Assembly: GCA_963700145.1 (NCBI GenBank)
Contig: OY969474.1
Location: forward strand, 1,888,001 to 1,952,000
Length of the DNA stretch: 64,000 nucleotides
Direction of reading: 5' to 3'
Source: an uncultured Acidobacteriota bacterium
GTDB lineage: Bacteria > Acidobacteriota > Thermoanaerobaculia > Multivoradales > UBA5704
A program made the translations under genes and the position numbers. Shown piece by piece: positions 11,444 to 35,479 of the stretch. Position 1 is the stretch's first letter, and each line of letters opens with the position of its first letter. Under the pieces are notes generated by a model, which did not search any database, had not been told where the DNA came from, and saw nothing but the letters and a program-made list of their open reading frames with translations.

Positions 11444-11491
11444 AGGCGCCTCCCTCGATGGCTCACCGGTGGGAGGCCAGCGAGTCCCACG

Positions 11492-12464: not shown

Positions 12465-12500
12465 TGTCGCGCTCCTCACGTCTGACGCAGAATAGCACAC

Positions 12501-12893: not shown

Positions 12894-12913
12894 ACGCGAC
12901 CGAGGAGGTTGGT

Positions 12914-14464: not shown

Positions 14465-17400
14465 CTACACCGTGAGCTCATTCTGCTTCAAGTTCACCAA
14501 CCCCGAGGAGTTCACGACCAGGACCCGGAACCGATGATAGAAGGGGTTGCCGGCGCTGTTCTCCTTGAGAAGGACGCCCGTTCCGAGCGTCGTGTCCTGC
14601 AGCTTTACCTGCATGACCGCCGCATCGCCGACGGAGGCGATCTTCACCCACATTCCGACATCGTTCAGTTTGTAGAGGTGGTAGGTGCCGTTGTACGTCG
14701 TGCGCGGCCAGCTCAGTTGCACGTTCGCGTACTGGAACGGATGCGTGAGCGACAACGGATCAGACGTCATGGTGATCTGCGGAGGTTCGGGATTGACGGT
14801 GTCCGCTACTCTCGCCGTGGCCATCTCCGAAGGCTTCGACGGGATCCTCTCCGGCAGTCCCTGTTCGTTGATGATGCTGCGGAAGGCGAGAACGCGGTAG
14901 TGGATCGGCTGCGCGAACGGAACGTAGCCAAGGTCGGCGAAGTCGTCGAACACCGGATCGCCTAGCATGAACTCCCTCACTTCGGTCATCGTGCGGACGT
15001 TCAACGCATCGTCGGCGTCGAGAGAGCGGTACAGCTTGTAGCTGGTGACGCCTTCGCTCGGCAGGTAACCGCTTAGCAGGAAGTCGACCCGCGGCGTTGC
15101 TCCCGCTCCATCGTCGAGTTGCGCCGTCACCTTGCGGATCACCGGCGCCTCGGGCGGCGCGGCGTTCACCAACTGCACCGGGCCGGTGATCGGGCTGCGC
15201 GCGCTCACCTTCATGGTGCTGCTCAGCTCCACCGCGAAGTAGAAGTAGACGTTGGTCGAGGCGCCGTCGATGGTGTAGTCGGTGATGCGGACCCACCGCG
15301 TGTTCGTGGCGCTGCCGTGGCCGGGATCGCCGTCGTGCATCACGTCGCCGTTGGCGTTCTTCTCGTAGCGCACGGCCATCGGCCACGGATCGGCGTCGTC
15401 CGGTGGGAGGCGCTGGCCGTTGGGGCTGCGCAGCTTCGGCGGGCGGCCTGACGTCTGGAGGGTCTTGTCGTTCAGTTGCTGGTAGATCAGCGGCAGCTCG
15501 GTGATCGGGACGAACGCCTTCTCGACCGCTTCCTGCACCACCGACTTCATCGTCCGCCCGCCGGTTCCCGGCACGACGGCGCTGCTGCCGGGAGGCGTGG
15601 TGTTGTTCAGCGCGAAGGGGAAGACCGGCGGGTCGAGCGACGGATCGGGAATGACGTAGGTGTCGTCGTTGGGGGGAGGAAAGCGAAAGCCGTCCAAGAC
15701 GTACTGGACGAACTCGTCGTTGGCGTCGGTGACGACGTGCACGAGGTCGCTCCACCGCTGCGGCTCGAATGTCTTCTCGAAATCCGACATGCCCTCGAGC
15801 CGTGCCACGATCTCGCGGGCCGTCTTTGGCTCATAGAGCTGATCGATGATCTTGCGGTCATTCGCCTTGTAGAAGACGAGCGCGTACGGATCGTCGACCT
15901 GGACGTCGACGGTGAAAGTCGCCTTGCCGAAGAAGTTGGGCCGGGTGGCGAAGAGCGGTCCGCGGAGCGGCCCCGGCGCCACCGGCTCGCGCAGCTCCTG
16001 CGCCAGGATCACGGCCGGCTTCGACATCCGCGACGTCAGGCTGGCGGCGGTCGCTCGCGAGCGAACCGTGAAGAGTGTCTGCCGCGAGCCCTCGCCGCGA
16101 GCGGGGAGAACGGCGGGCTCGCCGAAGTTGTGGCCGGGCGTGGTGACGTCGGCGGTCAGGTAGACGCGGTACGAGGGATGGAAGTTGACCGCCACGCTGC
16201 CGGTCTGCACCGGAACGTATCCGTCGACCGGAACGAACTGGGTTCCGGCGAGCAGGAACTTCCCGGAAACGGGATCGCGCTGCAGGCCGAGCTCGGCGTC
16301 GTACGCGATCACCTGCAGAGTCGCTCCGCTGTTGTCGACGTTCCACACCCGCAGCACCTTGGTCTTGCCGTTCAGATCCGGCAGCCGAACGATGCCTTCG
16401 CAGAGCTCGACGTCGGGATCGCTGCTGGCGGCGAGCTGCCGATTGGCCAGGGTGATGGTGTAGGCGCCGGAGGGGACCGAGGACGGCCCGCCCGCCGGAA
16501 TCGCCGCGACGACGCCGGGATCGAGGTCGGGAATCGCCACCACCGTCGCCGAGTCGGCGATGCCGCCAACCACGACGCTCCGGCCCTGGCCGTCGTTGTT
16601 GACGATGAACTCCATGAACGGCGGGGAGAACTGCGCCAGCGACACTTCCTTCGTCAGCTTGGTATCCCATACCGCCGGGTTGTCGAGGTTCTCCGCCATC
16701 AGGAAGCGGTCGCCGGCGTGCGGGCTGCTCCACTTTTCGACCGTGCAGAAGGAGTTGTCGTGGTCGGCGTCGACCGACGCCGTGGTGCGGATCTGCTGCA
16801 ACACCAGAGTCGGATTCGGTCCACTGCTGGTGACCGACTCGACCACCCACGACTGCCCGTTTGCCGTCAGGCGGGCGCCGACGTAGCGCTGAACGTCGGC
16901 GGCGGCGATCTCCGGCTGCACGATTTGCGGCGGCTTGGTGCTGGCGATCGGATACGACTTGGTGGTCACCGTCGTGGTGTGCGTCGACGGGTGGTCGGCG
17001 ACCGCCGCGATCTCGCCGCGCACCACCTGTGGCGGGAGCGTGCGGAAATAGAGCTCGACCGTGTCGACGCCGAAGTAGGCGCGGTTCTGGACGTCGTTCC
17101 AGTCGAAGGTCACGCGCAACAGCGTCTGGTCGCCCGCCGGCAGTTGGGCCAGGCGCAGCTGCTCGTCGGCCGAGGTGAAGATGCGCGGCTCCTCCTTCTG
17201 AATGAGCTGCACGGCGAGGTTCGACGGCGGTAGCAGCGTATTGCGCGGCGCAAACACCGTGGCGTCGGTCTGCACCTCGTTCGACGCCCCTGCCGTGCGC
17301 GAGAAGATGTTGATGCTGTAGAGCTGGTAGTGGTGCACTCCCGCGGACCGCTCGCCATGCGTGTAGACCGGATTGCTGCCGCGCTCCGGAATCGGCGCCA

Positions 17401-20245
17401 CTTCCGCGTAGCCGGCTGAATCGAGCCACGCGTCGTTGTGGCTCAGCTCCGGCCGCACGTCGTTGCCCGCTCCGACCGCTCCCGCGCCGTAACGGACGCC
17501 GAAGCCGACCGGTGTCGTTTCTTCGTAGAGGTTGAACTCATCCGCCGTCTGGAAGAACCCCTCCATCGGCATTTCATGCCGGAAGCGCGCGCGGTCGAGA
17601 TTGACGAAGCGGATCTGATCGAAGACGGCGTAGCCGTTGGCATCCGTCAGCGCCGAGGTCGTGCCCTCGCACTCCTCGGGCGGCAGTCCGTAGCTGAGGG
17701 CGATCGCCGGCGGCGGCGGCGGCCGGTGATCGGTGATCCGCACCGGCGGCGTCATGAAGCAATGCCTCACCGTCGACGCCGTCTCGTGCTCGAGCTGCGC
17801 CTCGGTGACGTATTGCATGAGGTAGATGAAGCGCGCCCCGCTGCCGGCGGTCGGGCTCGGATCGATGGTACCGAGGCCCAGCATCCGGGCGACGTGAAAG
17901 TCGAGCGAGACGAAGTTGAGCAGGTCGAGGTAGCTCAGCTCCGTGGTGGAGAGGTTGGTGACCGGGTCGGAGTTGGCGACCACGACGTTGGCGCCGACGG
18001 CGGTCCGGCTGGCGTCGAGATAGGTGATCACGCCCTGTTTCAGGCCGTCCGCCGGCAGCAGCCAGCGGTCGCGATAGCTCTGCGCGTTGACGCGGAACAC
18101 CCCGGGGTCGGAAACCTGCTGGAACTTCGGCCAGAGGTTGTCGACGACGACGTCCGGCGACTCTTCGAGGCGGCGGAAGACGTTGGTGTTGGCGTCCGCG
18201 TTGCCGTCGTCGAGGCTGTAGTCGCCGACCTTCTCCCATTCGCGCCGCGCGTTGGAGGTGTGGAGGAAGTCGTCATACGTAGCGATGTGCAGCCCGGTCG
18301 GAGCGAGACCCGAGTAGTCGAAGCGAACCGAGTCGATGTTCTCGCCGACGATCGAGGCATCGACGGCCGCGGCGAAGGTGCGCCGGCAGCCGATCCTGCG
18401 CGAAGTGTTGTCGAGCGGATCAGGAAGGGTCAGCGCCTCGAGGCGAAAATGCGGCGGACCGGTGGGAGCGCTGACGACCAGGGGGATGGCGACGGAAAAG
18501 GCGAGCTTGCCGATCGCGCGTGCCTCGACGACGCCGCGGTATGCGGCGATGAACTGCCGCGGAGCGGAGTGCGGATCGATCGTCTGCCGGACGGCGTCGT
18601 ACTCGGGGAGGTCGGCAAAGCGGATCGAGACGTCGGTGGTGCGGCCCGCCGACGGAACGAGGTCTTCGTACAGCCACTCCCGGAACGCACCGCTCTCGAA
18701 GAGCGCCGACGGCGGATGGGCGAAGTCGACGTCGACGCCGTAGTCGCTCTTCATCGCCGTCCTGAAGATGCGCACGAAGTCGTCGGCGCGGTTGTACCCG
18801 ATCGTCGCCGCCCACGGCCCGTTCGGCGCGGCGAGGTTCCCTTTCGGGAGGTGCGCCTTGCCCAGGCTGCGGAGCAAATCCCAGCGGAGATGGAAGCCGC
18901 GAACGGTGCGGTCGCTGAAGTCGGAGCCGGCGGCCTGCAGGTAGATGTAGGGCGATTGCACCCGCGCGCCTTCCAGCTCGATGCCGATCCCGGACGGACA
19001 GATCTCCGAGAGGATGGGCGTGACGCTGCGAACCGTCACCCGACGCGAGGTGACCTCCATGGTCACCCGCTCGATCTGGGCCGCCCAGTCCGCCGCGTCG
19101 AAGCGAACCCTCGCTGGCTCGGGCAGTGGGCGATCTCGGGTGACGCAGCTTGCGAGATCGCCGTCGGCGTAGGCGAGCAGCGGCCGGGTGTACGCCTGCG
19201 GCTCGGCGACGACTCCGCAGACGGCGAGGCCGCCGGCCGCGTCGCCGGCGTCCTTGATGTCGATCAGCGCCGTCGATCCGGGCAGCGCCAGCTCTCTCTG
19301 CCAGAGCAGCTCGAGCGACGGATCGAAACAGGCGACGAAGCTGCCGCGCGGCGCGTCGTTCACCGTCGCGGCGAGAAGGATGTTCCCCGCAGAGTTGGTC
19401 GGGCCGCCCGACTTGAGGAGCCGGCGTCCGCCCACCTCGGATTGCGGCCGGAACCTGTACACCTGCCCGGTGACCTCGGTGTCGTCCGGCGTCAGCTCGG
19501 CAACGAAGCTCCTGCGGCCGTCACCCGTTTCACCGGCGATGACGAACTTCGGACCGCTGGCGCCCACCGGAGGGGAGGTGTGAACGATGTCGACCGCCTG
19601 CTGAAACTGGGAATTGCCGATGACCCTCTTCCATGAGAGGTTCAGCTTGTCGTCGAGAGCGACGACGAAGCAGTCCCACGTCCCCCTTCCATTCGAGCCT
19701 CCGGCCAGCACGCAGCCGCCGGCGTACGGAATGAGAGAGTTGAGCTGGTCGTCGCCGCTAGTGTGGATGCTGAGCGCCGCCAGGACCTTGCCCTTCCCGT
19801 CGATCCTCGCCACTTCGACGTCGTCGGTGGTGCCGCGCTCGTTGTACCAGCCGGCGAAGATGTAGGTGTCGCCGCTTCCCCTCACCAGCCGGATGTTGAT
19901 GCGGGTGCGATCGCGCGCGTAGGAGTTCGCCCAGATCACCTCGCCGGCCGGCGTCAGGCGCATCACCAGGGCGTGGCTCTGGCTGACGCTCGTCACCAAC
20001 GAGCCGTGAACCATCAAGTCGCCGTTGGGGCAGCGGACGCCGCTCCAGAAGCGCAGCGGCCGGTTGGCGACGGTGTAGGTCTTCTGCCAGACGGTGCGGC
20101 CGTCCGCATCGATCGACGCCAGGAGCGCGACGGAGTCGGCGAACGTTCCGGCGACGATGAAGCCCTCGCCGGCGGCGTCGGCGGCGATGATGGCTCGATA
20201 CGACGCGTCCTCGCCGAAGGTGAAACCGTTGACGAAGTACGTCAC
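14465..20245 (-). CDS. Giant hypothetical protein (1926 aa): N-terminal beta-propeller-like repeats, then Ig/FnIII-like segments
   Basis: GTG 20245 overlaps the upstream TGA; blade motifs VWQKTY/IWANSY/WKRVIG/LWQREL; linkers PPSNLAV, PPEAPVI, PEPPQI. Confidence 0.85.
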   Translation of the reverse strand: MTYFVNGFTFGEDASYRAIIAADAAGEGFIVAGTFADSVALLASIDADGRTVWQKTYTVANRPLRFWSGVRCPNGDLMVHGSLVTSVSQSHALVMRLTPAGEVIWANSYARDRTRINIRLVRGSGDTYIFAGWYNERGTTDDVEVARIDGKGKVLAALSIHTSGDDQLNSLIPYAGGCVLAGGSNGRGTWDCFVVALDDKLNLSWKRVIGNSQFQQAVDIVHTSPPVGASGPKFVIAGETGDGRRSFVAELTPDDTEVTGQVYRFRPQSEVGGRRLLKSGGPTNSAGNILLAATVNDAPRGSFVACFDPSLELLWQRELALPGSTALIDIKDAGDAAGGLAVCGVVAEPQAYTRPLLAYADGDLASCVTRDRPLPEPARVRFDAADWAAQIERVTMEVTSRRVTVRSVTPILSEICPSGIGIELEGARVQSPYIYLQAAGSDFSDRTVRGFHLRWDLLRSLGKAHLPKGNLAAPNGPWAATIGYNRADDFVRIFRTAMKSDYGVDVDFAHPPSALFESGAFREWLYEDLVPSAGRTTDVSIRFADLPEYDAVRQTIDPHSAPRQFIAAYRGVVEARAIGKLAFSVAIPLVVSAPTGPPHFRLEALTLPDPLDNTSRRIGCRRTFAAAVDASIVGENIDSVRFDYSGLAPTGLHIATYDDFLHTSNARREWEKVGDYSLDDGNADANTNVFRRLEESPDVVVDNLWPKFQQVSDPGVFRVNAQSYRDRWLLPADGLKQGVITYLDASRTAVGANVVVANSDPVTNLSTTELSYLDLLNFVSLDFHVARMLGLGTIDPSPTAGSGARFIYLMQYVTEAQLEHETASTVRHCFMTPPVRITDHRPPPPPAIALSYGLPPEECEGTTSALTDANGYAVFDQIRFVNLDRARFRHEMPMEGFFQTADEFNLYEETTPVGFGVRYGAGAVGAGNDVRPELSHNDAWLDSAGYAEVAPIPERGSNPVYTHGERSAGVHHYQLYSINIFSRTAGASNEVQTDATVFAPRNTLLPPSNLAVQLIQKEEPRIFTSADEQLRLAQLPAGDQTLLRVTFDWNDVQNRAYFGVDTVELYFRTLPPQVVRGEIAAVADHPSTHTTTVTTKSYPIASTKPPQIVQPEIAAADVQRYVGARLTANGQSWVVESVTSSGPNPTLVLQQIRTTASVDADHDNSFCTVEKWSSPHAGDRFLMAENLDNPAVWDTKLTKEVSLAQFSPPFMEFIVNNDGQGRSVVVGGIADSATVVAIPDLDPGVVAAIPAGGPSSVPSGAYTITLANRQLAASSDPDVELCEGIVRLPDLNGKTKVLRVWNVDNSGATLQVIAYDAELGLQRDPVSGKFLLAGTQFVPVDGYVPVQTGSVAVNFHPSYRVYLTADVTTPGHNFGEPAVLPARGEGSRQTLFTVRSRATAASLTSRMSKPAVILAQELREPVAPGPLRGPLFATRPNFFGKATFTVDVQVDDPYALVFYKANDRKIIDQLYEPKTAREIVARLEGMSDFEKTFEPQRWSDLVHVVTDANDEFVQYVLDGFRFPPPNDDTYVIPDPSLDPPVFPFALNNTTPPGSSAVVPGTGGRTMKSVVQEAVEKAFVPITELPLIYQQLNDKTLQTSGRPPKLRSPNGQRLPPDDADPWPMAVRYEKNANGDVMHDGDPGHGSATNTRWVRITDYTIDGASTNVYFYFAVELSSTMKVSARSPITGPVQLVNAAPPEAPVIRKVTAQLDDGAGATPRVDFLLSGYLPSEGVTSYKLYRSLDADDALNVRTMTEVREFMLGDPVFDDFADLGYVPFAQPIHYRVLAFRSIINEQGLPERIPSKPSEMATARVADTVNPEPPQITMTSDPLSLTHPFQYANVQLSWPRTTYNGTYHLYKLNDVGMWVKIASVGDAAVMQVKLQDTTLGTGVLLKENSAGNPFYHRFRVLVVNSSGLVNLKQNELTV

Positions 20246-23200
20246 GGCAGCACCACCTCGGCCTGAGCCGATTCGACGGGCGAGTACGCGGCGCCGTCCC
20301 ACTGCTTGTAGTCGAACGCGAAGCTGCAGGTGGCGCCGGCGGGGATGTTCATGCTCCCGCCGGCGTTGGTGACGAAGGCCCGCGAGAGGTCCTTGGAGTG
20401 AATGGCCAGGTAGTCGCTCTCGTTGCCGCCGTTGACGGAGAGGCGGATCGAGGTCGCGATCTCACTCGCCGGCAGCTTCGGATCGTTGAACGGCTCAGGA
20501 TTCCATACCAGGATGCCGAGGACGCGTGAGGTGGTGGTATCGCGAATGATGTTGAATTCCGTTCGTTGCGGCGGCGGCAGCGCCTCCATCTTCAGGGCGC
20601 CTTCCATGAGGCGGTTGAACGGATCGGCGAATGCCTGCTTCAGCGGATCGCCGTCGGCCATGCTGCCGTCGACGATGCTGGTGGCCACCGCAAGATCGGC
20701 AGCGTCGAACGCCTTCCCCGCCTCGAAGACGGCTGCCTTGAGCACGGTGCCGTCGCCTGCCACTTTCAGCGCATAGCTGCCGACCTGCTCGGCGAAGCTC
20801 GCATAGCGCGAGGTCTGGAAGCCGTAGTGCAGCAACTCGCTGTTGGTGTAGTCGGGTTCGCCCGGCTTCCTGAAACGCAGCCGGAAGATCGCGGTGTAGA
20901 GCTTCAGCGGCTGGAGATGCTGGGTGTCGAGCGGGAACTCGGAATAGAGCCAGGTCGGATGAATCTCCGCCACCGTCCCGCAAGGGGTGCCGTACGCGAT
21001 CATGTTGTTGAGGATCGTCACGTCCTGCGACACCAGCGGTAGGGGGCTGAGCTTCCACGTCGCCTCCACCGGCCCCGGGTCGGCGATGCTGGCGTCGGGC
21101 GCCGGGTCTTTCACCACCACGTCGAAGACGGCGTCCGCCGCCCCGAGCCCTCCCCATGGAGCCCAGCCGCAGAACATCCGCGCCACATAGGTCTGCAGAT
21201 AGAAGAGCAGCAGCTTCGGGTTGCTGTAGAAGAGCGGCTTGGCGTTGATCAGTTGCCCGTCGGCGTTGGGGTACGACTTGTCGAAGTCGAGGTAATGCAG
21301 GAGCCCGACGAGCTTGAACTCGTCGCCGTGGCCGGCCTGCTCCAGCTGGTGGAAGTCCGCACGCGGGACCAGCTGGCCGGTCGCGTCGCGATAGACGTGG
21401 AAGTGGCCGAGCGGTCCCGCGGTGCTGAATCCGAAGACTCGCGAGCTGCCGTCGTGCGGATAGAAGGTCTCGACGTTGCTGCTTCCCTCGCGGAAAAGGG
21501 TGTCCCGGGTGGTCACCCGAATGGCATAGCGCGTGTACGGCCGCCACAACGGCTGGATCGAGCCCTGAAACGCGTTGACGATGCTCGCCACCTCGGCGTC
21601 GACGCTGCTCTGGGCCGGAAGCGTTGCGTTGAATGCCGCCGACGGGTAGTCGAGCACACAGACCGCGTAGACGTAGACCGCGCACTCGCGGGTTGGCTCC
21701 GCATCGCTCCCGCCCGGCGGAGCGACGCCGCGTGGCGGGACGCTCGCCGCGGTCGGCAGCGCGGCCGGGCCGGTGGAAGCGGTGGTGTCAGGCGATGTGC
21801 CAACGGTGGCGATCGTGAACGGCGCCTCGCCCCGCAGCACCACCGTGCTCTCCCCTTCCCACGTCCGCACGCGCGCATCGACGAGGAATCCGCGGTTGGG
21901 GCCGTGCACGAGGTTGCCGGCGTCGGCACGGAGCGCGGAGAATCCGCTGACGGCGTCGAAAGTGAAGCTGGGCCGCGGCAGCGGCAGCGCCAGCGACACC
22001 GTTCCTCCCACCGCACCTTCGCTCAGCGAGATCTCGAGGCGCGGCAGCGCCGTGGGAGCGGGAGTGGCCGTGATCCAGACCTTGCGGCCGGAGACCGGGG
22101 AGTTGCGGCGGCCGGTGCTGAACGCGCGGTCGAACAGATCGGTCTCCTGCGGCGACAATTTTAGCCGGGGCTGCGCGAGGCGATTGTTCGCAGCAAGGTA
22201 GTCGAGCAAGCCGCCGAGCGCTTCCGCTTCCGCGGTCACCGGGCCCGGAGTCGGGACTCCGCTGTAAGCGCAGCGGCTGATCGGATAGCACGAACGGCCA
22301 CGGAAGGTGACGCGCTGGCGCCCTTTCGAGGTCAGCACCTCGCCGTCGATGAGGAAGGTGTAGTTCATCCCGGCGACCTTCTGCGAATCGGCGCGCAGGT
22401 TGCGCAGCACGGTGAGATGGACCCAATCGATCGCCCGCGCCCCTTCGATCAGCGTCAGGTCGATGAGACAGGTGAATCCCTGCCAGTCGGTGAGGCGTCC
22501 GTGCAGCTCCGTGCCGGTCGAGGAAACGAGGCTGTAGCGGTAGAAGTCGGGAGTCACCGGCGCGGCGTGAAGCGTCGACTCGAAGAAGGCGCCGTCCCAG
22601 ACCTGGTAATCGTGGACCAGCAGCTCCGCCCGGGCGCTGGTGTGCTCGCCGCGGTCGACCAGCAGCGCCAGGAAGCGCTCGAGGTCGCGCGCTGCCGGCG
22701 TCAGCGTCGGATCGCAGACCAGCGGCGGGCCGACGCTGCACGCGCCTGCCTCCACCACGATCTTGTCCACCGGTTCCTGGATGTCCTCGTAGAGCACCTC
22801 GACCGGTGCACCGCGCGGGATGCCGCGCGTGGCGACCAGCACGTAGTCGTAGGCGTCGAGCCCGTTCGGCGACGGCGGCAGCGCCTCGCGGCGGTAGTAG
22901 CGCACCGCGGCATGGTCGGTGCTGGCCTGCGCCTTGAGCCGCACCAGGACGGCCGGCTCGGTAAGGAAGATCTCCAACGCGCTGACGGCGTCCACTCTCA
23001 CGGCGCGCTCGAAGTCGCCCCATGCCTGGTCGAGCACGTGGCCGTCGGCTCCGGTGACGCGGAACTGGAACTGGTGATGGAAGAAGCGGCGGCGCTCCCG
23101 CAGCGTGACGATCTCCTTCGGCGCGCCGAAGTCGTTGAAATTCGTGCAGGTCTCGGCGATCGGGTCGGGTGCACAGAAGATCGACTCGCTGGTGATTCCC

Positions 23201-26200: not shown

Positions 26201-26744
26201 TTGGTGAGAGCCTCGCCGAGCGGGTCGGCGCCGAGCGGATCGACGGGGTGATGGCCGTCTGATAGGCCTCGTTGAGATCGAGGACGAGCTGGTCGAGCCG
26301 GTCGAGCGGACTGGCGCCGGCGACGAAGATGCCGAGGGCACGCTCGAGGAGCTGGCGCTCAGTCAGGCCGGTGGCGGTGAGGGCCAGCTGGTAGAAGTCG
26401 GCCGGCGAGAACGAGAAGGTGGAGAAGTTGAACTGGCGAAGCCAGGCCAGGATGCCCCACTCGTAGCGGAGCGTCACCGGGAACTCCGATCGCCCGCCCT
26501 GATGTCCGGGATTGAGCTCGAGGAAGAGGCCGGTGCCCGGCACCTCGAAGTCGAGCAGCTTCCCGCTGACGATGATCAGGCTGTAGTTCGCGGCGTCGCC
26601 GCGCGGGCTGACGCTGTACTGCAGGTCGCGGAAATAGAGGCCGTCGAAGATCTTCTCGATGCCGTCCTTGACGAAGCTCAGGGCCTCCGGCAGCTTGTCG
26701 GTCGGCACCAGCAGAGAAAGCCGCGGGTAGTAGACGGCGGTCAT
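20242..26744 (-). CDS. Giant beta-strand-rich hypothetical protein (~2167 aa), split by a 1-nt frameshift at 26245-26248
   Basis: ORF 26046..26744 is coherent up to AYQTAIT and continues in the 20242..26049 frame as PVDPLGADPLGEALTKIETT...FLDLVTPRVHATL. Confidence 0.8.
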
Positions 26745-26756
26745 CGGCGCGTCTGG

Positions 26757-29700
26757 CTACAGGCCCGCGAGAGCGCGCCTGATCAGCTCCTCCACCTGAT
26801 CGACGACGGCGGTGATGCCGTTGGTGACCTTCGACGCGAAGGGGATGTGGATGTGGCCGGTCAGCGTCAGGCTGTGGCGCGTCTCGCGCTCTCGCGCGAC
26901 GCGGTAGAAGACCTCGTTGGAGAGAAAGTCTCCGCCGGATCCTTTCACTGCCTCGGCCGTTGGCGTCGCGGCAGGATTCTTCTTGTTGTCGTTGACGTCT
27001 CCCTCGCGCGGGTGAAACTGGGAGGCAGTGGTCAAGGTTCGATAGGACTGGTCGAAAAACACCTTTTGAGAGTGGTCGGGCGGGGAGAGGAAAGGGCCGA
27101 GAACCATCTTTTCGACCGGCAGCGTCGACTCGTAGAAAGGAGCCCACGTCAAGTCGGAGTCGCCGATTTGTTGCGGGATGAGCCGGCGCTCGTTGGCGTT
27201 ATCCCGAGTCGACCATCCCCGCTGTCGTCCCGCCAGGCGTTCCACGTCGTACCCTTCGACAGGGATCTGAGAGTCCAGGCTGACGGTCACGATCATCGCC
27301 GCACACGTCGGGTCGGGCGTCTGTCCCATCAGCCATTTGCCAGCGAGCTTCTCCACCGCGCCGGCGTCGAAGTCGGCGTAGCGCACCGGGAACACGGCCG
27401 ACTCGACATACGCTGTCTTTCCCGATCCGGCGATCGTTGTCCCGTGGAGCGCCAGGGCGACGGCTCCTGAGGGATTTAGCCGGTACTCGAGACCCTCCGG
27501 AACGTAGGGATCGAAGCCGGTCACCAGGACCCGCAGCGAGTCTGCAGGGGCATTGGCAAAGTCGAGGTCGTAGCCGCGCGACCGCTCTTCGAGCGAGACC
27601 AGCAGCGGCGTGGGGTCTTGGGCGGGTTCTTCGGAGAGCGAGCGGCAGAACTCGTGGCTCTTCAGGGCCACCGCCATCCGCAGGCGGGCGTAGTAGAGCG
27701 ATCGCGCCGCTTCGTCCGCGGCGGCGCGGTCATCGTTCGCCAGCCACCGCGCGCGCTTCAAGATCTTGCTCGCCGCCGTGTCGACCAGCGCCTGCAGCGA
27801 CGACTTGGCGTTGGCGTCGGAGGCGGCGACGAGGTTGATGGCGCCGACGAAGCCGTCGACGAGCGCGCGCAGGCTGGGGATGCCGTTGGGGTTGGCCGGC
27901 CGGTAGTCGCGGTCGATGAAGAAGTCCTCGACCGTCCGCGCGATGGTGAAAACGCTCCCCCACGGTGCGTCGGTCAGTAGCACCGGCGAGCCGCTCAGCA
28001 CGATGACCGTATCGGTCCCGTTGAACGTCACCGAGGCCGCCGTATATGGCCCGTCATTGTTTTCCGATCCCGAGATCTCCAGGCTGTTGCCGGCCACGAG
28101 CTCGGAGCGCCAATCGTCGGCGGCGATGGTGATCGAGGAGGTCGCCACGTCGACCGCGTCGATGCGCCGCTGCCGGACCGGCCAGGGATCCGCACCCCGC
28201 GCTTCCTCCCAGTTGCGCCCGTATGGCCCGGGCGGCGGCTCGGCGGCGGCGAAACCGGGCGAGGCGAAGACGCGGCCGTCGACCGAATAGACGTGGATGT
28301 CGGCGGAGGGGAACTCCGACGCAGGCGTGCCGTCGGTGGCCAGACCGCGCACGCCGAGGCGGTAACGGTCGGCGCTGGCACCGCCATTGGTCACGGTGGT
28401 CTTGCCGTCGAGGATCAGGGTGCGGTCGTAGTCCGTCGTCATCGTCGTCGCGCCGAGGCCGCGCAGCGTGGTCAGCTCCGCATCGGTCACGCCGACGAGC
28501 ATCGCGCCGGTCGGCGGGTAACCCTCCTCCGCACTCTGCCGGAGGCTCAGCGTGCGCACCGGCGCATTCGCATCGACCACCACTCCTTGGTCCAGTCCGT
28601 AGAGGCCGAAGAGGCCGCGCTCCTGGAAGAAGCTCGCTGCCGAGCTCACGCCGTCGGGCACACCGCGCACGGGGACGAATTCGGGATCCTCGAAGTCGGG
28701 AGCGGTCGCCATCGCGTACAGCAGCGATCGTGGTGTGGGACCGCTCTGCTGGGCGATGCCGGTGCGCATCATCTGCCGCCAACCCTGAGTGCCCTCGGCA
28801 TCGACGTAGTGGCTCGGCTGCACCGTCGCCCACTTGATGACCGGGTCGCTGACCGCGACCGGCGTCGCCCAGCCATCGGTACGGTCGATCGGGCCGAAGA
28901 TGTTGTCGGTGTAGGTCGCGGTGGGAACGACGCCGGGTTTGGGCGGCGGCGGCGTGGCTGGCGGAAGCACTTCGCGACGGCCGTAGTAGAGCCTCAGCGG
29001 CCAGGCAACGTTGACCTTCGTGGTGGAGAGATTCGGGAAGCGAAGGCCGACCGGCGCCGTCCACGGAGCGGTTCCCAGCTCGTCGCCGCGCAGGAACGGC
29101 CCGCCCGCGGCCGCGGCGAGCAATGGACCGTGCTCGACAAAGAGAACCGGATCGACGTTGTCGTCGCGCCGCAGGCTGACGTGAAGCTCGTTGTGGTCGG
29201 CGTTGGGATCGGCGGCGGCAACGGAGTCGAGGAGCACGATGGGCCAGCCGTCGGTGGCGTAGGCCTGTGCGGTCACTGATGCCGCTGAGGTGCCGGTCTG
29301 GATCTGATGGCCCGATCCGTCGTCGTAGTTGCGGTGGAAGTTGAGCGACCGTCCGTGCTCGCTGCGGACGTCGAGATAGAGACGATGCTGCGTTGCAAAG
29401 TGCGAGACGACGGTGTTGAAGATCTCCTCGCCGTCGAGTGAAGGCCCGCCCGGGACCTCCACCCGGCCACCCTCGTGCAGGTGGAGGCCGTAGAAGGCAG
29501 CGGGATCTAGGAACGCCAGGATCTCGTCCTTCTTCAGCCGCCGCGCCAGATCGTCCGTTTGCATGGCGCCGATGTCGATCACATTGGCGGCACGCCGCGC
29601 ATACCCGAGGTCGGGGAAGTAAGCATTGTCTTCGAGCACGATCTCGAAGCCGAAATCGAAGGCGCCACCGGCGGCGTGGAAGAGGCCGAGCGGAGTGCCC

Positions 29701-32700
29701 TTCGTGACATAGGGAAGCTGCTTCTCGGTGTCGAGCCGGAAGAAGAGGTTCTGCAGCGTGTCGCCGTCGGCCGCGGCTGGGTCGTAGCCGAGAAAGGTCG
29801 ACGAGATCGTCGTCGCCGACGGATTGAGGTCCTTGAAAGCGGTCCACAGGGCGGCGATGAACGCCGAAGCCCCCGCCTCGTCGCGAACGCGCTTTTCGTC
29901 ATTCGTGGAAGAGCCGCCGAGGAATTCGTCAAGCCGCAGCCCGCGATAGATGAAATACCGCACCGGAGGAAAGCCGGCGACCGGCTGGGTGAGAGGCCGC
30001 AGGATGAGGTTCACCGCGACGTTGCTGCCGGCCTGCCGCTGCACCGCCACCACGCCGTCGGTGACGGCGTAGGCCTGCGTATCGTTCGGCGCGTGGAAGA
30101 GAGCCGTGGTTCGGTATTTGGTGGCCGGAGTCCCGTCGACGGGTCCGAAGCCCTGACTCACTGACTGCGTGAGCGAGGCAACGTCGGCAAAGACGAACGA
30201 CGCCGGCTTCGGCTGCGCCGCGGCGGCCGCCTGTCGCGCGCCGCCCGGCTGCGGGGCGACGCTGTAGATGGCGACGGTGTGAGCTTCCGAGGCGACTGGG
30301 AACTCGCGAAATGCGCTGAGGATCTCCGGCTCGAAGATGAGATCGGTGAAGGTCCGGTCGACGGTGAAGTCGAGGTCGAAATGGATGTCGAACTGCTCGC
30401 CGGTGGCCGGGACCTCGGTGCCATCAGGCCGCCGCGCTTCCACCGGCGGCTTGACCGTCGCCCACGGCGTGGCGATGTCCCAACCCCACCCGTTCGCATA
30501 GCGGAAATAGCGGATCTCGTCCGCGCCGGCCCGCTTCTTCGCCGTCACCTTCACCCGCACACGTTCCGTCTCGAAGGTGCCGGCCGTCATTCGCACTTCG
30601 ACGCGGATCGACTTCGTCTTCGCCGTGCCGACTTCGTCGACGTCGAGGTGCCCTTCGGCGGGATCCGCGCCGCCGTTCCTGGTGAAACGGAACTTCGCGA
30701 ACACCAGCTCGCGGAAGGAGATGTTGTTGTTGGTATCCGCAGTCGTGCCCTGGAGAGCTCCGTCGTGGGGCACGACCTCGCCGAGGGCGAAGAGGCGCAT
30801 GGAGCGCGCCGGCTTCGGGAGGTTGGGGCTGTTCGTCGGCGGACGCAGCGCCTCGGGCCACGTGGCGGTGAAGATCTTCGTGCTGTTGTCGGGGTCCGTG
30901 GCGGGTGCCAGCGACGGCACTTCCTCCTCCTTCAGCCGGCGCGTTCCCGCTTCACCGGTGGCGGGATCGAACGCTCCGGGGTTCACCTCGTCGACATCCC
31001 AGTAGTGGTCGAGGTTCAGAAAGCCGGCGGGCATGGGGCGGGCGGCGATTTCCCAGCGGTCGCCCTCCGTGTGCCCGCCGGCCGAGGCGAACACCACGGA
31101 CACGCCGAAGTCGAGCAACTGCGGCGCCCCCGCGGTGATCGCCACGGACGGCGCTTTCGGCGTGCCGTTGAGGAACCATCGGAAGTGGGCGCCGGAGGCC
31201 AGGATCTCGACCGTGTAGCGCGCTCGATCGGCGCCGTTGTAGGTGCCGCGGACCTGGAGATCGTTCACGCCATGGCCGTAGAAGCGGCAGACCGGCGAGC
31301 CGTCGCTCGCGCACAGCAGCACCCGCGCTTGGGTGACCGGCAACGCGCCGGCAAGCGCGGAACGCGCAAACGTTTCCTTCGCGCCGCGGTTGTGGACGCG
31401 CAGGTGGAAATGGCGTTCCGTCAGTGCCCTCGCCTTGACGAGCCAGCGGTCGCCCACCGTGTGTCCGGCGCTGACCGCGAACCGGATGCTCACGCCGTCG
31501 CTGAGCGGTTGCGCCGCGCCCGTGATGGCAACGCCCGTCGCGCCGGCAACGCCGTCGCGGCTCCACTTGAAGGTGTCCGGCGCCTTGGTCTCGATCTCGA
31601 TCGTGAAGGTGATTTCCGCCGCGCTGGTGCAGACACCGGAGACTTCCAGATCGTTCTTGCCGGCACCGACGAAGATCGCCGGATCGACGGTGACCCGGGG
31701 ATGCTGATGGTTGCCGGGATCATCGTAGGTGAGGAGCACGGTGGGAGCGTCGTTGCGGATCCAGATGTCGGGACTCTCGACGTCCTTCGTGCCGCGATTG
31801 GACGATCCGTCGTCCTCGAGAAAATTACGGATCATCAGGTCGCGGTCGTGCTGGTAGCTCTTCGCCGCTTTCACCGCCTCGAGCGCGTCGATCCGCCCGT
31901 AGCCGTAGCCGTAGCTGTACGTGGCGACGAGCCCCACACTCACCGGCTCCCCCATCTCGTGAAGATGGAGAAGAGGATCGATCTCGACTTTCGTCCCGGC
32001 CGTCCCGATGACAGCCCTCGCCTCCGTGTTCTCCTTCTGGACGATCGTTCCGGCAGGATGCTGCGCCTTCAACTTCGTGCCGGCGACGAAGGTCAGCGTG
32101 TTCCCCGCGGCGCTGCCGATCTCATACGGGCCTTCGTGCTGCGCAGGTGAAGCGTGCCGCACGAGAGCGCCGAATGCCTGAGGCGCCGCCAGCCCGGCAC
32201 TGAGCTTCAACTTCACGTCCGCGCCCACGACCCTCTTCGGAGGTATCCCGGACAGCGTTTCGTGTGCGGTAACGGCGGTGATCGTGACCTGCTGACCGCC
32301 GATGGTGATTTCATCGCCCACTCGAAAGCCGTCGACGTTCGCCACGACGACGCTGGTGGCGCCTGCCGGCGCCTTCTCCACCACCACCGTCTCGCGGCGG
32401 CGTCCGACCAGGATCTTGTCGCCGGCGGAGAACCCGGCGGTCGACTCGACGTCCAGCGACAGGGCGTCCAGGTTGCCGACGGTGCGAAGAACGGTTTCCG
32501 CGCCGATCAGCAGCGCCTGACGGGGTTGCAGTTGCGCCGCGACCGCGGCGCTGGCCAGGTGGATGAAGCGCGTCTTCGGCTGAGCTTTCACGCTCAGCTT
32601 GGTCGAGGAGATGCCGCCCAGGATGAGGAGCCCGTTGGTGTCGGCGATCCTCGTCACCGCCTGCGTGTCGCTGTGGACCCAGAGATTGCGCGCGTCGATG

Positions 32701-34667
32701 CCGGTGATCTTGAGATCGATCGGCACGGCCGTCCTGCGCAGGATGTCCCGCACTTCCAACCAGGTCAGGGACGGCTTGGCGGAGATCATCAGTGCCGCCA
32801 CCGCCGCCGCCTGCGGCGTGGCGGCGGAAGTGCCACCGTAGGTCGCGTCATAGCCCGCCTTGCCGGTGATCAGCTCGGCGCTTGCGTGCGCGGAGGTGAG
32901 AGGCTCGTCGAGCATCACCTTGAACGTGCCGGCCGGGTCCTCGCTCTTCGAGACCGCTCGACGCACTTCGGAATTGTCCTCGTCGTCCTTGTCGAGGATC
33001 AGCGCAGGCCTGGGAAGTCCGATGAGCGCGGCGTAGTCGGCGCCGGAGATCTTCAGCTCCTTCTCTCCACCCAAGAGCGGATCGAGGACGACCGCCCGGG
33101 TGTCAGCCGTGCCGGGGAGATCGCCGGAACCGGCGTCGGCGAGTGTTGCTATGCCGCGCAATGCCGGCGGCGAATGCCGGTAGGGGCCGAGGGTAAAGTG
33201 GCTCCGGCTGGGCGCGGCGAAGTCGATGTCCGGCGCGTCCGGAGTCGTCCACGAGCTGTCGGGCATCCGGACCTCGGCGCCGCGATGATCGAGCGACGAC
33301 GCCGCCACCTTCATGACGTTGACGTCCTCACCCCATTCGGATCCGTCCCGCGATTTGCTGTCGTAGTTGTTGGCGGAGACGAAGAACAACGTCCCTCGCC
33401 GGCCCCGCCCGAACATCGAAATATGGCCGAGCGCCTTCTTCAGGGACGGGGACATGGCCGGCAGTGTGTGGCTGCAATTGACGATCGCGGCCCGCAGAAC
33501 TAGCGACGCACCGCCGCCAAGCAAATATGGGAATATTTGCGTGGCTTCATATCCGCCGACACCCTTCTTCCAACCGGGAACGAAGCCGGCGGCGTAAAGA
33601 AAGGCGTGCGCCCACCGCAGATCGGCTGTCTTCGTCCACCGATATGCCGCCACGCGCGTGTTGGCGGCGATGCCGATCGTCCCGTCGGCCTCCCCGGCCG
33701 CCGAAATGAGGCCCGCCACGTTGATCCCATGCGGGTCGTCCACGGCATCGTTGTCGGCCACCATCGGCGCCGACCTCAGGTCGTAGGTGAACACCACCTT
33801 CTGCACCGGGACACCTGCCGGGGTGGTGACGGTGCCTTTGAGCTGCAGATGGTCGACGACACCGCCGCTCGTCTTGATTCCTTCGTCGTGGATCGCCACG
33901 ATCACGAAGGGGTTGCCGTAACTGGCCGACGTCCCATTCGCGTCGAGCTCTGCCCACGCCTCCGCCACCCGCATGAGCGAGTAGTTCCATTGCAGCGGAT
34001 AGAGAAAGTCCTGCGGCTCGACGGCGGTGGTCGTCGGGTCGGCGTGCAGGACGGAGTCGACTCTGCGGATGCCGGGCACCCTCCTGAGCTGTTCCAGCAG
34101 CAGCTCGGGACGATCGGAGGGCTCCTCGACGAGACGGACCAGATAGAGATTCGGCTGCACCGAGTCGCGCAGCTCGACTTTGATGGGGAAATCGGCCAGC
34201 AGCGCTTGCAGGGCCGCGATCGAGATCGGCTCTGCGGTCTCGACGTGCAGGTTGCGCGTCAGGTACAACGGCCGCCCGCCCGCCCACCCGACGAGCGGAC
34301 CGAGGTCCGGACTCTTCTCGGTCTCGCGGGGCGCGAAGGCGCCGGCGCGCGGCGTCAGCTGCCGGAAGTAGACCTTCCGTCCTTCCCGGTAGTAGTAGGA
34401 GTCCCCTTCCCGCCCGAGCATGACGCGCTCCGTCCTCGGGAAGACACGGGCATCGGCTTCGATCGTTTCGGTGAGCAGGCCGGGGGCCTCGACCGTCACC
34501 TGGTAGATCGCAGGCTCGACGTCGAGCTGGTAGCCGAGTAGGCGCTCGTTCCACGTCACCGGCGCCGGGGCGGGGACGCCTTGCCGCTGCAGCGAGACCG
34601 TGGCGTCGCGCACGGGCGCGTTGGCCGCGTCGACGACTTGAACGACGAGCGCACCCTTCTCCGGCAT
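26757..34667 (-). CDS. Giant multidomain protease (2636 aa): S8 subtilase plus C-terminal pyroglutamyl-peptidase-I (C15)-like domain
   Basis: S8 triad motifs VAIHDEG / PHGINVAG / GGTSAATP and YGYGRIDA; C15-like VLVTGFDPY, NPSG, FPVRY, GGDFLSNEVFY, GHIHIP. Confidence 0.9.
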   Translation of the reverse strand: MPEKGALVVQVVDAANAPVRDATVSLQRQGVPAPAPVTWNERLLGYQLDVEPAIYQVTVEAPGLLTETIEADARVFPRTERVMLGREGDSYYYREGRKVYFRQLTPRAGAFAPRETEKSPDLGPLVGWAGGRPLYLTRNLHVETAEPISIAALQALLADFPIKVELRDSVQPNLYLVRLVEEPSDRPELLLEQLRRVPGIRRVDSVLHADPTTTAVEPQDFLYPLQWNYSLMRVAEAWAELDANGTSASYGNPFVIVAIHDEGIKTSGGVVDHLQLKGTVTTPAGVPVQKVVFTYDLRSAPMVADNDAVDDPHGINVAGLISAAGEADGTIGIAANTRVAAYRWTKTADLRWAHAFLYAAGFVPGWKKGVGGYEATQIFPYLLGGGASLVLRAAIVNCSHTLPAMSPSLKKALGHISMFGRGRRGTLFFVSANNYDSKSRDGSEWGEDVNVMKVAASSLDHRGAEVRMPDSSWTTPDAPDIDFAAPSRSHFTLGPYRHSPPALRGIATLADAGSGDLPGTADTRAVVLDPLLGGEKELKISGADYAALIGLPRPALILDKDDEDNSEVRRAVSKSEDPAGTFKVMLDEPLTSAHASAELITGKAGYDATYGGTSAATPQAAAVAALMISAKPSLTWLEVRDILRRTAVPIDLKITGIDARNLWVHSDTQAVTRIADTNGLLILGGISSTKLSVKAQPKTRFIHLASAAVAAQLQPRQALLIGAETVLRTVGNLDALSLDVESTAGFSAGDKILVGRRRETVVVEKAPAGATSVVVANVDGFRVGDEITIGGQQVTITAVTAHETLSGIPPKRVVGADVKLKLSAGLAAPQAFGALVRHASPAQHEGPYEIGSAAGNTLTFVAGTKLKAQHPAGTIVQKENTEARAVIGTAGTKVEIDPLLHLHEMGEPVSVGLVATYSYGYGYGRIDALEAVKAAKSYQHDRDLMIRNFLEDDGSSNRGTKDVESPDIWIRNDAPTVLLTYDDPGNHQHPRVTVDPAIFVGAGKNDLEVSGVCTSAAEITFTIEIETKAPDTFKWSRDGVAGATGVAITGAAQPLSDGVSIRFAVSAGHTVGDRWLVKARALTERHFHLRVHNRGAKETFARSALAGALPVTQARVLLCASDGSPVCRFYGHGVNDLQVRGTYNGADRARYTVEILASGAHFRWFLNGTPKAPSVAITAGAPQLLDFGVSVVFASAGGHTEGDRWEIAARPMPAGFLNLDHYWDVDEVNPGAFDPATGEAGTRRLKEEEVPSLAPATDPDNSTKIFTATWPEALRPPTNSPNLPKPARSMRLFALGEVVPHDGALQGTTADTNNNISFRELVFAKFRFTRNGGADPAEGHLDVDEVGTAKTKSIRVEVRMTAGTFETERVRVKVTAKKRAGADEIRYFRYANGWGWDIATPWATVKPPVEARRPDGTEVPATGEQFDIHFDLDFTVDRTFTDLIFEPEILSAFREFPVASEAHTVAIYSVAPQPGGARQAAAAAQPKPASFVFADVASLTQSVSQGFGPVDGTPATKYRTTALFHAPNDTQAYAVTDGVVAVQRQAGSNVAVNLILRPLTQPVAGFPPVRYFIYRGLRLDEFLGGSSTNDEKRVRDEAGASAFIAALWTAFKDLNPSATTISSTFLGYDPAAADGDTLQNLFFRLDTEKQLPYVTKGTPLGLFHAAGGAFDFGFEIVLEDNAYFPDLGYARRAANVIDIGAMQTDDLARRLKKDEILAFLDPAAFYGLHLHEGGRVEVPGGPSLDGEEIFNTVVSHFATQHRLYLDVRSEHGRSLNFHRNYDDGSGHQIQTGTSAASVTAQAYATDGWPIVLLDSVAAADPNADHNELHVSLRRDDNVDPVLFVEHGPLLAAAAGGPFLRGDELGTAPWTAPVGLRFPNLSTTKVNVAWPLRLYYGRREVLPPATPPPPKPGVVPTATYTDNIFGPIDRTDGWATPVAVSDPVIKWATVQPSHYVDAEGTQGWRQMMRTGIAQQSGPTPRSLLYAMATAPDFEDPEFVPVRGVPDGVSSAASFFQERGLFGLYGLDQGVVVDANAPVRTLSLRQSAEEGYPPTGAMLVGVTDAELTTLRGLGATTMTTDYDRTLILDGKTTVTNGGASADRYRLGVRGLATDGTPASEFPSADIHVYSVDGRVFASPGFAAAEPPPGPYGRNWEEARGADPWPVRQRRIDAVDVATSSITIAADDWRSELVAGNSLEISGSENNDGPYTAASVTFNGTDTVIVLSGSPVLLTDAPWGSVFTIARTVEDFFIDRDYRPANPNGIPSLRALVDGFVGAINLVAASDANAKSSLQALVDTAASKILKRARWLANDDRAAADEAARSLYYARLRMAVALKSHEFCRSLSEEPAQDPTPLLVSLEERSRGYDLDFANAPADSLRVLVTGFDPYVPEGLEYRLNPSGAVALALHGTTIAGSGKTAYVESAVFPVRYADFDAGAVEKLAGKWLMGQTPDPTCAAMIVTVSLDSQIPVEGYDVERLAGRQRGWSTRDNANERRLIPQQIGDSDLTWAPFYESTLPVEKMVLGPFLSPPDHSQKVFFDQSYRTLTTASQFHPREGDVNDNKKNPAATPTAEAVKGSGGDFLSNEVFYRVARERETRHSLTLTGHIHIPFASKVTNGITAVVDQVEELIRRALAGL

Positions 34668-34732: not shown

Positions 34733-34786
34733 CTCGTCGAGCGTCCGCGTCGAGTGGCCGACGGTGAAGAGGGTCAATGGGGCCAC
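34733..34786 (-). pseudogene. 5' fragment of a DUF488-family gene
   Basis: MAPLTLFTVGHSTRTLDE matches the DUF488 N-terminal TIGHS motif; similarity ends after 18 codons. Confidence 0.6.
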
Positions 34787-34811
34787 GGGCGCGGCCTCGG
34801 ACGCGGCCCGA

Positions 34812-35215: not shown

Positions 35216-35479
35216 GACGACTGCATCTGCCAATTGGACGGATCACTGGCGCGGCGCAGCGAGGACCCCAGGGAATCGCTGGTTCATGCGGCGCTCCACG
35301 ACGGGATGGCTCGTCACCTCGCAGAAGACGTGTTCGCTGACAATCCATTTGCACTGCTCGCGGCGCGCGACTTGATCGATGCAGCGCCAGTGGCCCTTCT
35401 GGGCTACATGCGCGATCTCTCCCAAGACCCCGAGCGTGAAAGACGGTTCCGCGCGGCCATTGCAGCGGACGATGAACGC

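Follow-up and report, generated by a model that had tools for sequence, protein, structure and literature searches.

What is encoded by a run of three giant, co-oriented genes that makes up nearly all the recognisable cargo of a genomic island in an uncultured Acidobacteriota bacterium? The locus lies in a 64,000-nucleotide (nt) window of contig OY969474.1 (positions 1,888,001 to 1,952,000), and a sequence-only reading of that DNA had described an operon led by a dual protease, belonging to no named pathway, whose products might form either a protease-matured released or surface particle or an intracellular anti-phage system. Here, we find that the cargo of the island, the genes g1, g2 and g3, is a conserved, horizontally mobile three-gene module, undescribed so far. 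It combines a modular enzyme carrier (g1), a scaffold of about 2170 amino acids (aa) built largely of beta strands (g2) and, as modelled, a chain of immunoglobulin (Ig)/fibronectin type III (FnIII)-like beta sandwiches behind a variable N-terminal module (g3). The observation that opened the question is partly confirmed and its interpretation partly supported, and we set out below where each of them holds.

The three genes occupy a 20-kb stretch of the minus strand in the same orientation (Table 1), and their coupling is as tight as had been noticed: 12 nt separate g1 from g2, and g2 and g3 overlap by 4 nt, with the GTG start of g3 lying over the stop codon of g2. Guanine-plus-cytosine (GC) content by codon position marks the frames of all three as coding (0.85-0.88 at third positions, GC3, and 0.47-0.56 at second positions, GC2), in a high-GC, Gram-negative source genome of 5.46 Mb assembled as a single contig. 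The lengths first given for g1 and g3, 2636 and 1926 aa, stand; the longest open reading frame (ORF) of g3 has 1945 aa, and the 1926 aa counted from the GTG start are also the length of its protein collection entry. The gene g2, taken at first for a single gene of ~2167 aa, is in fact two ORFs in different frames. Scans for a promoter upstream of g1 and a terminator downstream of g3 were blank, and the idea that g2 and g3 are paralogues of each other was ruled out by BLASTP (E>2).

The three genes keep each other's company far beyond this genome. A survey of one genome per species, covering 185,579 species genomes, returned 201 relatives of g2, from which we kept 79 loci. Where the downstream flank is 5 kb or longer (70 loci), the g3 core follows g2 in 69, and where the upstream flank is 7 kb or longer (60 loci), a g1-specific domain that we call g1dom (residues ~1490-1850) precedes g2 in 55; all three parts are present in 53 of 58 evaluable loci. 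These loci span at least four phyla, the kind of conservation that the sequence-only reading had named as support for a system. Four of the five loci without g1dom also lack the N-terminal domain of g2 and share another upstream protein of 940 aa, a joint absence that hints at a link between g1dom and the g2 N-terminus. Most carriers are environmental Bacteroidota, joined by Thermoanaerobaculia and other Acidobacteriota, Alphaproteobacteria, Kapaibacteria and one Planctomycetia fragment, and they include the cultured Mucilaginibacter psychrotolerans, Winogradskyella undariae, Nubsella zeaxanthinifaciens, Flagellimonas onchidii and Rhodospirillum sp. A1_3_36. Two or three diverged copies coexist in several genomes (loci L038/L057/L062, L013/L034, L030/L048 and L065/L067). 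When all plus-strand ORFs of the 79 loci were clustered, only the families of the trio recurred broadly, and no further family appeared in more than 10 real loci.

The enzymatic character of g1 resides in its N-terminal head. Its S8 subtilase domain scores 56.2 bits against PF00082 (cut-off 21.8, E 4e-15) and has an intact catalytic Asp/His/Ser triad, in the motifs HDEG, HGINVAG and GGTSAATP, which we take to be the subtilase Asp, His and Ser motifs, respectively. Among 18 sequences, the g1 of the window and 17 full-length homologues, the Asp and His are present in all 18 and the Ser of GTS in 17. A long insertion precedes the Ser motif in g1, and PDB subtilases match around that motif. The proposal of a dual protease holds for this domain but not for its C-terminal partner, a domain resembling pyroglutamyl peptidase I (family C15) that passes the Pfam cut-off (30.5 bits vs 22.7, E 5e-7) and stays far under those of the NCBIfam equivalogs (18-24 bits vs 199-271). 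Opposite the catalytic Cys of the 'FVCN' motif in PDB 3lac and 1aug, g1 has a Ser, and the nucleophile position varies among homologues (S/A/P/Q/F/E); the C15-like domain is therefore not a canonical cysteine peptidase. Its His motif is present in the g1 of the window and absent from some homologues. The combination of S8 and C15 domains recurs in Fluviicola, in Rhodospirillum and in 19 long forms of g1.

Between the head and the C15-like domain lies g1dom, the single part of g1 that precedes g2 almost throughout the family. Of 1.84 billion cluster representatives, 1204 match its profile (991 at E<=1e-30), in proteins of two architectures: 2400-2800 aa with the domain central, and 620-1500 aa with the domain N-terminal. 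Pfam gave no significant match, only 10 unrelated families at E 0.03-0.22 with one member each among the 54 members searched, and the profile had no match in the PDB. An assignment of g1dom to Peptidase_M23, the best named lead in ESM Atlas (0.83, below the level of 0.9), was rejected, as neither Pfam on the 54 members nor the PDB profile search supports it; a motif pattern in g1dom may resemble that of M23. Together with the C15-like domain lacking its catalytic Cys, g1dom makes up a conserved g1 body of ~1150 aa.

What sits in front of this body varies. Of 41 shorter g1-type proteins, six carry an S8 domain, one DUF6402 and one a C15 domain, and 33 have nothing recognisable; among 13 shorter database matches, four have Amidase_2 and three PF27118. 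The homologue P0150 joins a peptidoglycan recognition protein (PGRP)-like/Amidase_2 head (PDB 1yck, E 5e-4) to a body 35% identical to residues 1484-2609 of g1. As judged from these sequences, the N-terminal enzymatic head of g1 is exchangeable, a subtilase here and a peptidoglycan amidase or PGRP-like domain in relatives. In Flagellimonas onchidii, a protein of ~900 aa with a C-terminal EndoU nuclease domain (L077:2308-5004) lies between the g1dom gene and g2. A small ORF of ~115-150 aa follows this EndoU-type protein and its relatives in three loci (L077:5440-5784, L052:8317-8775 and L053:8894-9253) and may be an immunity gene. We also saw by eye, at residues ~1010-1230 of g1 (window ~30980-31640), two tandem repeats of ~75 residues with the pattern '...F(K/R)W...GDRW...'; they sit between the subtilase and g1dom, and their family is unassigned.

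For the second gene, g2, we detected 172 homologues, the closest being single proteins of 2099-2217 aa. Its main part has a beta-meander core along with helices, a middle that varies and a C-terminal domain that is conserved. An AlphaFold2 (AF2) model of the core, built from a 69-sequence alignment, reached a predicted local distance difference test (pLDDT) of 80.6 and consists of near-unbroken long strands joined by tight turns, so that the impression of a protein dominated by beta strands was sound. For the window copy, Pfam, NCBIfam, PADLOC and PHROG gave no match; profiles of the g2 family and of its N-terminal and C-terminal domains matched the PDB at chance level only, and Pfam found nothing in long forms of g2 and g3 of 3,100-3,250 aa (L067, L038). 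Foldseek placed the core beside LptD, ushers, SlpA, Rhs/Tc shells, LPD-3 and chorein-type proteins at template-modelling (TM) scores of 0.06-0.17, normalised to the query. The best of these, to LptD, ushers, chorein/VPS13-type proteins and LPD-3, reach probabilities up to 0.97 and share long antiparallel meanders with g2, but their query-normalised TM scores are 0.12-0.17 at a root-mean-square deviation above 23 A, and g2 has neither a signal peptide nor an N-terminal anchor; on the modelled structure, its likeness to barrel and groove proteins may be no more than long beta hairpins. The middle of g2 is variable, and in relatives it can accommodate lectin-like or propeller modules, as in the homologue P0137, which has Laminin_G_3 and Toxin_R_bind_N within this region.

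In the genome studied here, g2 is broken. Its two ORFs encode 232 aa (26046-26744) and 1935 aa (20242-26049, in a frame open to 26358), and the N-terminal domain encoded by the first matches residues 9-177 of a homologue (L003), where the alignment ends. Searching with two continuous homologues by tblastn, we found their residues 9-177 in one frame, ending at 26241, and the part from residue 176 in another frame, starting at 26247, and three-frame translation agrees with the DNA on this change. By comparison, 71 ORFs in related loci span the N-terminal domain and the core in one frame, and among the homologues compared the change is unique to the window copy. A programmed frameshift is unlikely, judging from the site, which has no X_XXY_YYZ heptamer, and from the 71 single-frame homologues. 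Near-identical contigs from a soil metagenome (run X1) are identical to the window; they stop at 26248 and resume at 26266, and the frame change is neither confirmed nor refuted by them, because none bridges 26249-26265. X1 may itself derive from the window's own source. Unless it arose in assembly, the frame change may have left the window copy of g2 inactive. Whatever the role of the family, this raises the question of whether the copy is a decaying relic, a g2 pseudogene on a degenerate integrated element without an integrase. We regard this as a serious possibility, though we lean against it: the frame change is unique against 71 continuous homologous ORFs, no recombinase is recognisable in the island and the left repeat is degenerate, but this is a single defect in ~20 kb whose other frames remain open with GC3 of 0.85-0.88, it lies beside a homopolymer, where assembly errors occur, and the site is unbridged by the only near-identical public contigs.

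In the third gene, g3, the N-terminal module (residues 1 to ~420) is variable and the core (~430-1926) is conserved, with 26 full-length-type homologues of about 1900 aa. An AF2 model of residues 420-1500 from 57 sequences reached a pLDDT of 88.3 and predicts a chain of beta sandwiches, for which Foldseek returned Ig/FnIII arrays, lambda gpJ, an archaeal S-layer protein and the PrgB adhesin at query-normalised TM scores <=0.11 (lambda gpJ and T4 baseplate matches, <=0.08); the earlier description of g3 as Ig/FnIII-like agrees with this model. As for g2, there was no Pfam, NCBIfam, PADLOC or PHROG match, and neither the g3 core profile nor g3 alone found a relative in the PDB. The sole pointer to a propeller at the g3 N-terminus is the source name 'BamB' on one homologue.

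In a Kyte-Doolittle scan, a crude test in which the start is taken as the first Met, none of 56, 73 and 71 homologues of the three families has a signal-like hydrophobic N-terminus, in agreement with the initial remark that no Sec/Tat signal is recognisable. The same crude scan found no convincing transmembrane helix, and no lipoprotein signal or transmembrane anchor, in any of the three families; one borderline internal hydrophobic segment occurs in each of the g2 and g3 families. These data bear on the idea that the trio is a surface structure or feeding apparatus of the producer itself, in which an adhesive or S-layer-like assembly of g2 and g3 would hold a protease or amidase for nutrients or attachment. 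The Ig/FnIII arrays of g3, with an archaeal S-layer protein and the PrgB adhesin among their Foldseek matches, would suit such a role, as would the lectin-like inserts of homologues, the mainly environmental Bacteroidota and Acidobacteriota that carry the module, and the resemblance of the S8 head to a secreted subtilase. We nevertheless consider it unlikely, given that no signal peptide, lipoprotein signal or transmembrane anchor occurs in the three families, that no export partner, of the type IX secretion system (T9SS) or otherwise, recurs in the ORF clustering of the loci, that the module is infrequent and unevenly distributed (201 relatives among 185,579 species genomes, and one of 40 relatives of the window genome), and that mobile DNA would be an unusual location for a housekeeping surface layer.

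The lack of export signals would also fit a large cytoplasmic assembly with some other role, either a giant self-compartmentalising protease or a function serving the mobile element itself. A subtilase fused to a very large non-catalytic mass, a degenerate C15-like domain that suggests a structural or binding role, and the constant location of the module on mobile DNA are all compatible with this. We consider it very unlikely, however, since most short g1 forms have no S8 domain, the head can be a peptidoglycan amidase, and lectin-like and Ig-like modules are atypical inside cells.

Among described systems, a close comparison in outline is with Tc (ABC) toxins, which are likewise encoded on mobile DNA by three neighbouring giant genes, have no signal peptides and combine a large beta-sheet component, a propeller-type module, a protease and a variable enzymatic payload. 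Tc/Rhs shells are indeed among the Foldseek matches of the g2 core (6suf_F, 6h6e_F and 8qja_B), at TM scores <=0.10 and probabilities <=0.28; for the Tc cocoons 6suf_F and 6h6e_F the values are 0.09-0.10 and 0.20-0.28, which do not place the g2 core among them. Moreover, the trio has no VRP1, TcA_TcB_BD, SpvB, RHS or YD domain in Pfam (E<=0.01), its payload is N-terminal in a g1 of ~2600 aa rather than at the C-terminus of TcC, and it has nothing like the alpha-helical translocation channel of TcA. Polymorphic toxins such as Rhs and contact-dependent inhibition (CDI) proteins share with it a conserved scaffold bearing swapped enzymes (S8, Amidase_2 and EndoU, with a phospholipase D (PLD) enzyme in distant relatives) and the occurrence of several diverged copies in some genomes. 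They differ in that the heads of the trio are N-terminal, that no PAAR, TPS, VENN or other trafficking or pre-toxin domain is found at significance, and that no conserved immunity gene follows the trio. The trio thus falls outside the Tc toxins and the polymorphic toxins on every test of membership, and it resembles them in logic only.

Defence systems offer a second comparison. Analogy had been drawn to IetAS, and an S8 protease and an island location are indeed common to both; the trio lacks an IetA-type ATPase partner and a PADLOC match, and S8 is dispensable in the g1 family, so the analogy has no support past the shared S8 fold. More broadly, PADLOC-DB v2 returned 0 families for the 4 translated pieces of the trio (E<=0.01), and Pfam and NCBIfam show no NTPase (nucleoside triphosphatase), helicase or nucleic-acid sensor domain in it. 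With g2 and g3 also blank in Pfam, NCBIfam and PHROGs and their folds without a real Foldseek relative, the absence of any named pathway is upheld. These results weigh on an anti-phage role by abortive infection, in which Ig-like and lectin-like arrays would sense phage inside the cell and the g1 enzyme would kill the infected host. Swappable effector domains are typical of defence systems, the island sits at a tRNA beside toxin-antitoxin (TA)-type genes, relatives in Mycetohabitans lie amid TA, integrase, HEPN/nucleotidyltransferase (NTase) and insertion sequence (IS) elements, and the proteins are patchily distributed, lack export signals and have no evident immunity gene. Even so, such a role appears distinctly unlikely, with 0 PADLOC families for the four proteins, no NTPase, helicase or nucleic-acid sensor domain in the trio, and ~6700 residues of beta-sandwich and beta-meander that would be unprecedented for a cytoplasmic sensor.

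We tentatively favour, at somewhat less than an even chance, a complex that carries no secretion signal and presents an enzyme to a target surface, serving antagonism rather than phage defence. In this proposal, g1, g2 and g3 would assemble into one large complex, as their tight coupling, near-obligate co-occurrence and shared variability lead us to suppose; a modelled complex of g1dom with the N- and C-terminal domains of g2 scored 0.18 (mark 0.32). The complex would leave the cell without Sec or Tat, for example by lysis, and would act outside the producer, since its heads act on envelope substrates and its variable parts look like binding modules, and since the other heads are classical toxin domains (EndoU, PLD) and there is no NTPase and no PADLOC match. 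There, g2 and g3 would attach to a foreign surface, at which they would present or deliver the enzyme of g1. The trio would then serve antagonism or predation much as tripartite toxin complexes do, without being related to them; because no fold relative was found, this analogy is one of logic only. Of the two options first offered for the locus, the released or surface particle would be the better fit and phage defence inside the cell the poorer one, given the lack of NTPase or nuclease sensor logic and of a PADLOC match alongside Ig/FnIII arrays, lectin-like inserts and envelope-active heads. Maturation by the protease is plausible but is no general feature, as S8 occurs, besides the 19 long forms, in only six of 41 shorter g1 proteins and amidase heads occur elsewhere.

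Several points weigh against a delivery complex of this kind. Neither fold search produced a real structural relative (query-normalised TM <=0.18). Of the 41 shorter g1-type proteins, 33 have no recognisable enzyme, and the enzymatic head is N-terminal, unlike that of classical polymorphic toxins. Amidase_2 also covers cytoplasmic enzymes such as AmpD. The loci lie amid TA genes, integrases and IS elements, which would suit a defence island equally well; ORF clustering of the loci found no secretion, lysis or immunity gene recurring beside the trio; and g2 is broken in the very genome in which we describe it. A bolder version of the same proposal, which we rate as rather unlikely, is that the trio constitutes a new class of tripartite machine, self-contained and with neither sequence nor fold kinship to any secretion system, contractile injection system or Tc toxin. 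A giant beta-meander shell or conduit (g2) and an Ig-like/propeller targeting array (g3) would carry g1 to or across a foreign envelope, with the g1 enzyme swapped like a cartridge and the whole carried by islands and plasmids into four or more phyla.

The island is 22.8 kb long and is bounded by direct repeats of ~90 nt beside a tRNA-Pro gene, and its GC content (0.64-0.68 over 14-36 kb of the window) is lower than that of its flanks (0.69-0.78). It qualifies as a tRNA-borne genomic island by its deviant GC, by direct repeats that take in the 3' part of the tRNA, and because close relatives lack it. In a congener (G003), the tRNA lies ~90 nt from an M20 peptidase gene with no island between, and in another (G004), whose flank is 98% identical, different and unrelated DNA lies beyond tRNA-Pro (L096, G004:C42); the site is therefore a hotspot for varied insertions. 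The g2 core is present in one of 40 relatives of the window genome, in a distant form, and in none of four of the same genus. We conclude that the element entered this genome by horizontal transfer, at a variable site. The description of it as a RepA/recombinase element at tRNA-Pro is right as to the island, the RepA_C gene and the tRNA. A RepA_C-family gene is the sole recognisable mobile-element gene within the island, whose other recognisable genes are the trio itself; the recombinase is not confirmed, because the three small ORFs by the tRNA (34774-35813) have no Pfam family, and no other recombinase or integrase was recognised in the island. The zeta/AAA_33-like gene lies beyond the left repeat and so outside the island, as does a further tRNA-like remnant at 11353-11377.

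Table 1. Positions of the trio, its domains and the features of the insertion site, in window coordinates.
Feature	Position	Strand	Description
g1	26757-34667	-	2636-aa ORF; modular enzyme carrier, N-terminal subtilase head on conserved ~1150-aa body
S8 subtilase domain of g1	32727-33905	-	residues 255-647; Pfam PF00082
g1dom	28968-30218	-	about residues 1484-1900; g1-specific domain of ~400 aa, no known family
C15 (pyroglutamyl-peptidase-I)-like domain of g1	26823-27533	-	Pfam PF01470, residues 2379-2522
g2	20242-26744	-	~2170 aa in total; split over two frames
g2 N-terminal domain	26250-26744	-	first ~165 codons of the 232-aa ORF; the remainder is out-of-frame read-through
Frame change in g2	26241-26250	-	beside a four-C run at 26245-26248
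g2 main part	20242-26247	-	~2000 aa: helices, beta-meander core, variable middle, conserved C-terminal domain
g2 beta-meander core	23743-26034	-	residues 72-835 of the folded segment, ~760 residues
g3	14465-20245	-	1926 aa from GTG at 20245; variable N-terminal module and conserved core
Left direct repeat	12914-13004	+	~60 nt plus degenerate tRNA 3' part; repeat-family and pairwise alignment
Right direct repeat	35733-35822	+	~60 nt plus tRNA 3' part, running into tRNA-Pro; repeat-family and pairwise alignment
tRNA-Pro(cgg), insertion site	35792-35868	-	ARAGORN
RepA_C-family gene	13062-14012	+	Pfam PF04796, E 6.7e-30
zeta/AAA_33-like gene	11492-12121		Pfam support; just outside the left repeat

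The trio also has more distant kin. In the window genome itself there is a second and distantly related pair (G000:C1:16274-30697; L085, L088), in which the gene order is reversed: the g3-like gene, for a protein of 1519 aa, comes first, and the g2-like gene after it encodes 2970 aa, including 3keto-disac_hyd and Rax2 propeller domains. Upstream of this pair are two unannotated ORFs, of 662 and 581 aa. In Mycetohabitans, a plasmid-borne operon encodes a hypothetical protein of 1322 aa, a PLD-like enzyme and a protein with the annotation DUF6603; its neighbours are TA modules, HEPN/NTase genes, an integrase and IS elements. The g2 core is 26-28% identical to the Mycetohabitans DUF6603 proteins over 71-88% of its length, and the 1322-aa protein upstream has a weak match to the g3 C-terminus. 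DUF6603 proteins resemble the trio in having a beta core distantly similar to g2 and in lying beside an enzyme gene and a protein whose C-terminus weakly matches g3; they differ in gene order and in having the enzyme as a separate PLD-like gene, and DUF6603 has no known function. At the level of family models, the homologue P0035 scores 27.5 bits against DUF6603 (PF20248; cut-off 27) and the window g2 does not match, the domain is precomputed on eight of 120 g2 homologues among the matches listed, and an ESM Atlas query with g2 returned unnamed clusters only, one of them with DUF6603 in 16% of its members. A protein on the Haloferax mediterranei megaplasmid (H5, H6) is 23% identical to residues 592-818 of the g2 core (E 7e-8), a hint that the beta-meander unit of g2 extends to archaea.

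Phages showed no such kinship: the g2 core was found neither in 50,697 phage records by tblastn nor in IMG/VR, and g2 and g3 have no PHROG match that would relate them to tail or baseplate proteins. DUF6603, PF20248 and DUF7379 are absent from the literature found by search, and searches on Peptidase_C15 with Peptidase_S8, on giant Bacteroidota proteins and on three-gene defence with a subtilase found no relevant literature. A preprint on giant genes of predatory bacteria concerns far larger genes (10.1101/2023.11.21.568195).

The trio comprises ~6,700 well-conserved residues without a relative in PADLOC, PHROG or the PDB or a counterpart in the literature found, and g2 and g3 are absent from Pfam as well; its module occurs in ~200 species-level genomes and in ~1,200 protein clusters, with confident structure models that have no structural neighbour. 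Were it an antagonistic delivery complex, it would add to Tc toxins, Rhs shells and contractile systems a further type of architecture, one in which the payload head is naturally exchangeable; a defence system or cytoplasmic assembly of this kind would be equally unprecedented in size and composition. The cultured carriers, several of them non-pathogenic, make the question of function directly testable.

The surroundings of the trio hold a number of minor features. At the right end of the island, a 144-aa ORF of unassigned family (35379-35813) has no match among plasmids; its C-terminus ('...PRTSLLFNE...') is encoded by the ~60-nt part of the repeat, and the left repeat (12566-13147 region) holds a remnant of the same reading frame. 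Just left of the island, the zeta/AAA_33-like gene is overlapped by an ORF upstream of it (12114-12500) that may encode a Phd/YefM-like antitoxin, and a second TA-like pair is formed by a ribbon-helix-helix (RHH)-like ORF (11005-11490) and the STAS-domain gene that follows (10450-11001). A 65-nt direct repeat, 98% identical, occurs at 8695-8759 and 10883-10947, in the region of the M20 peptidase and STAS genes; the segment 10948-11303 lies on the other side of the M20 gene in G003, which suggests rearrangement at the hotspot. The flanks include genes for a TonB-dependent receptor and a methyl-accepting chemotaxis protein (MCP), and at 41945-46283 a TonB-dependent receptor gene is followed on the same strand by a dynamin-family GTPase gene (Dynamin_N, E 8e-24), unrelated to the trio.

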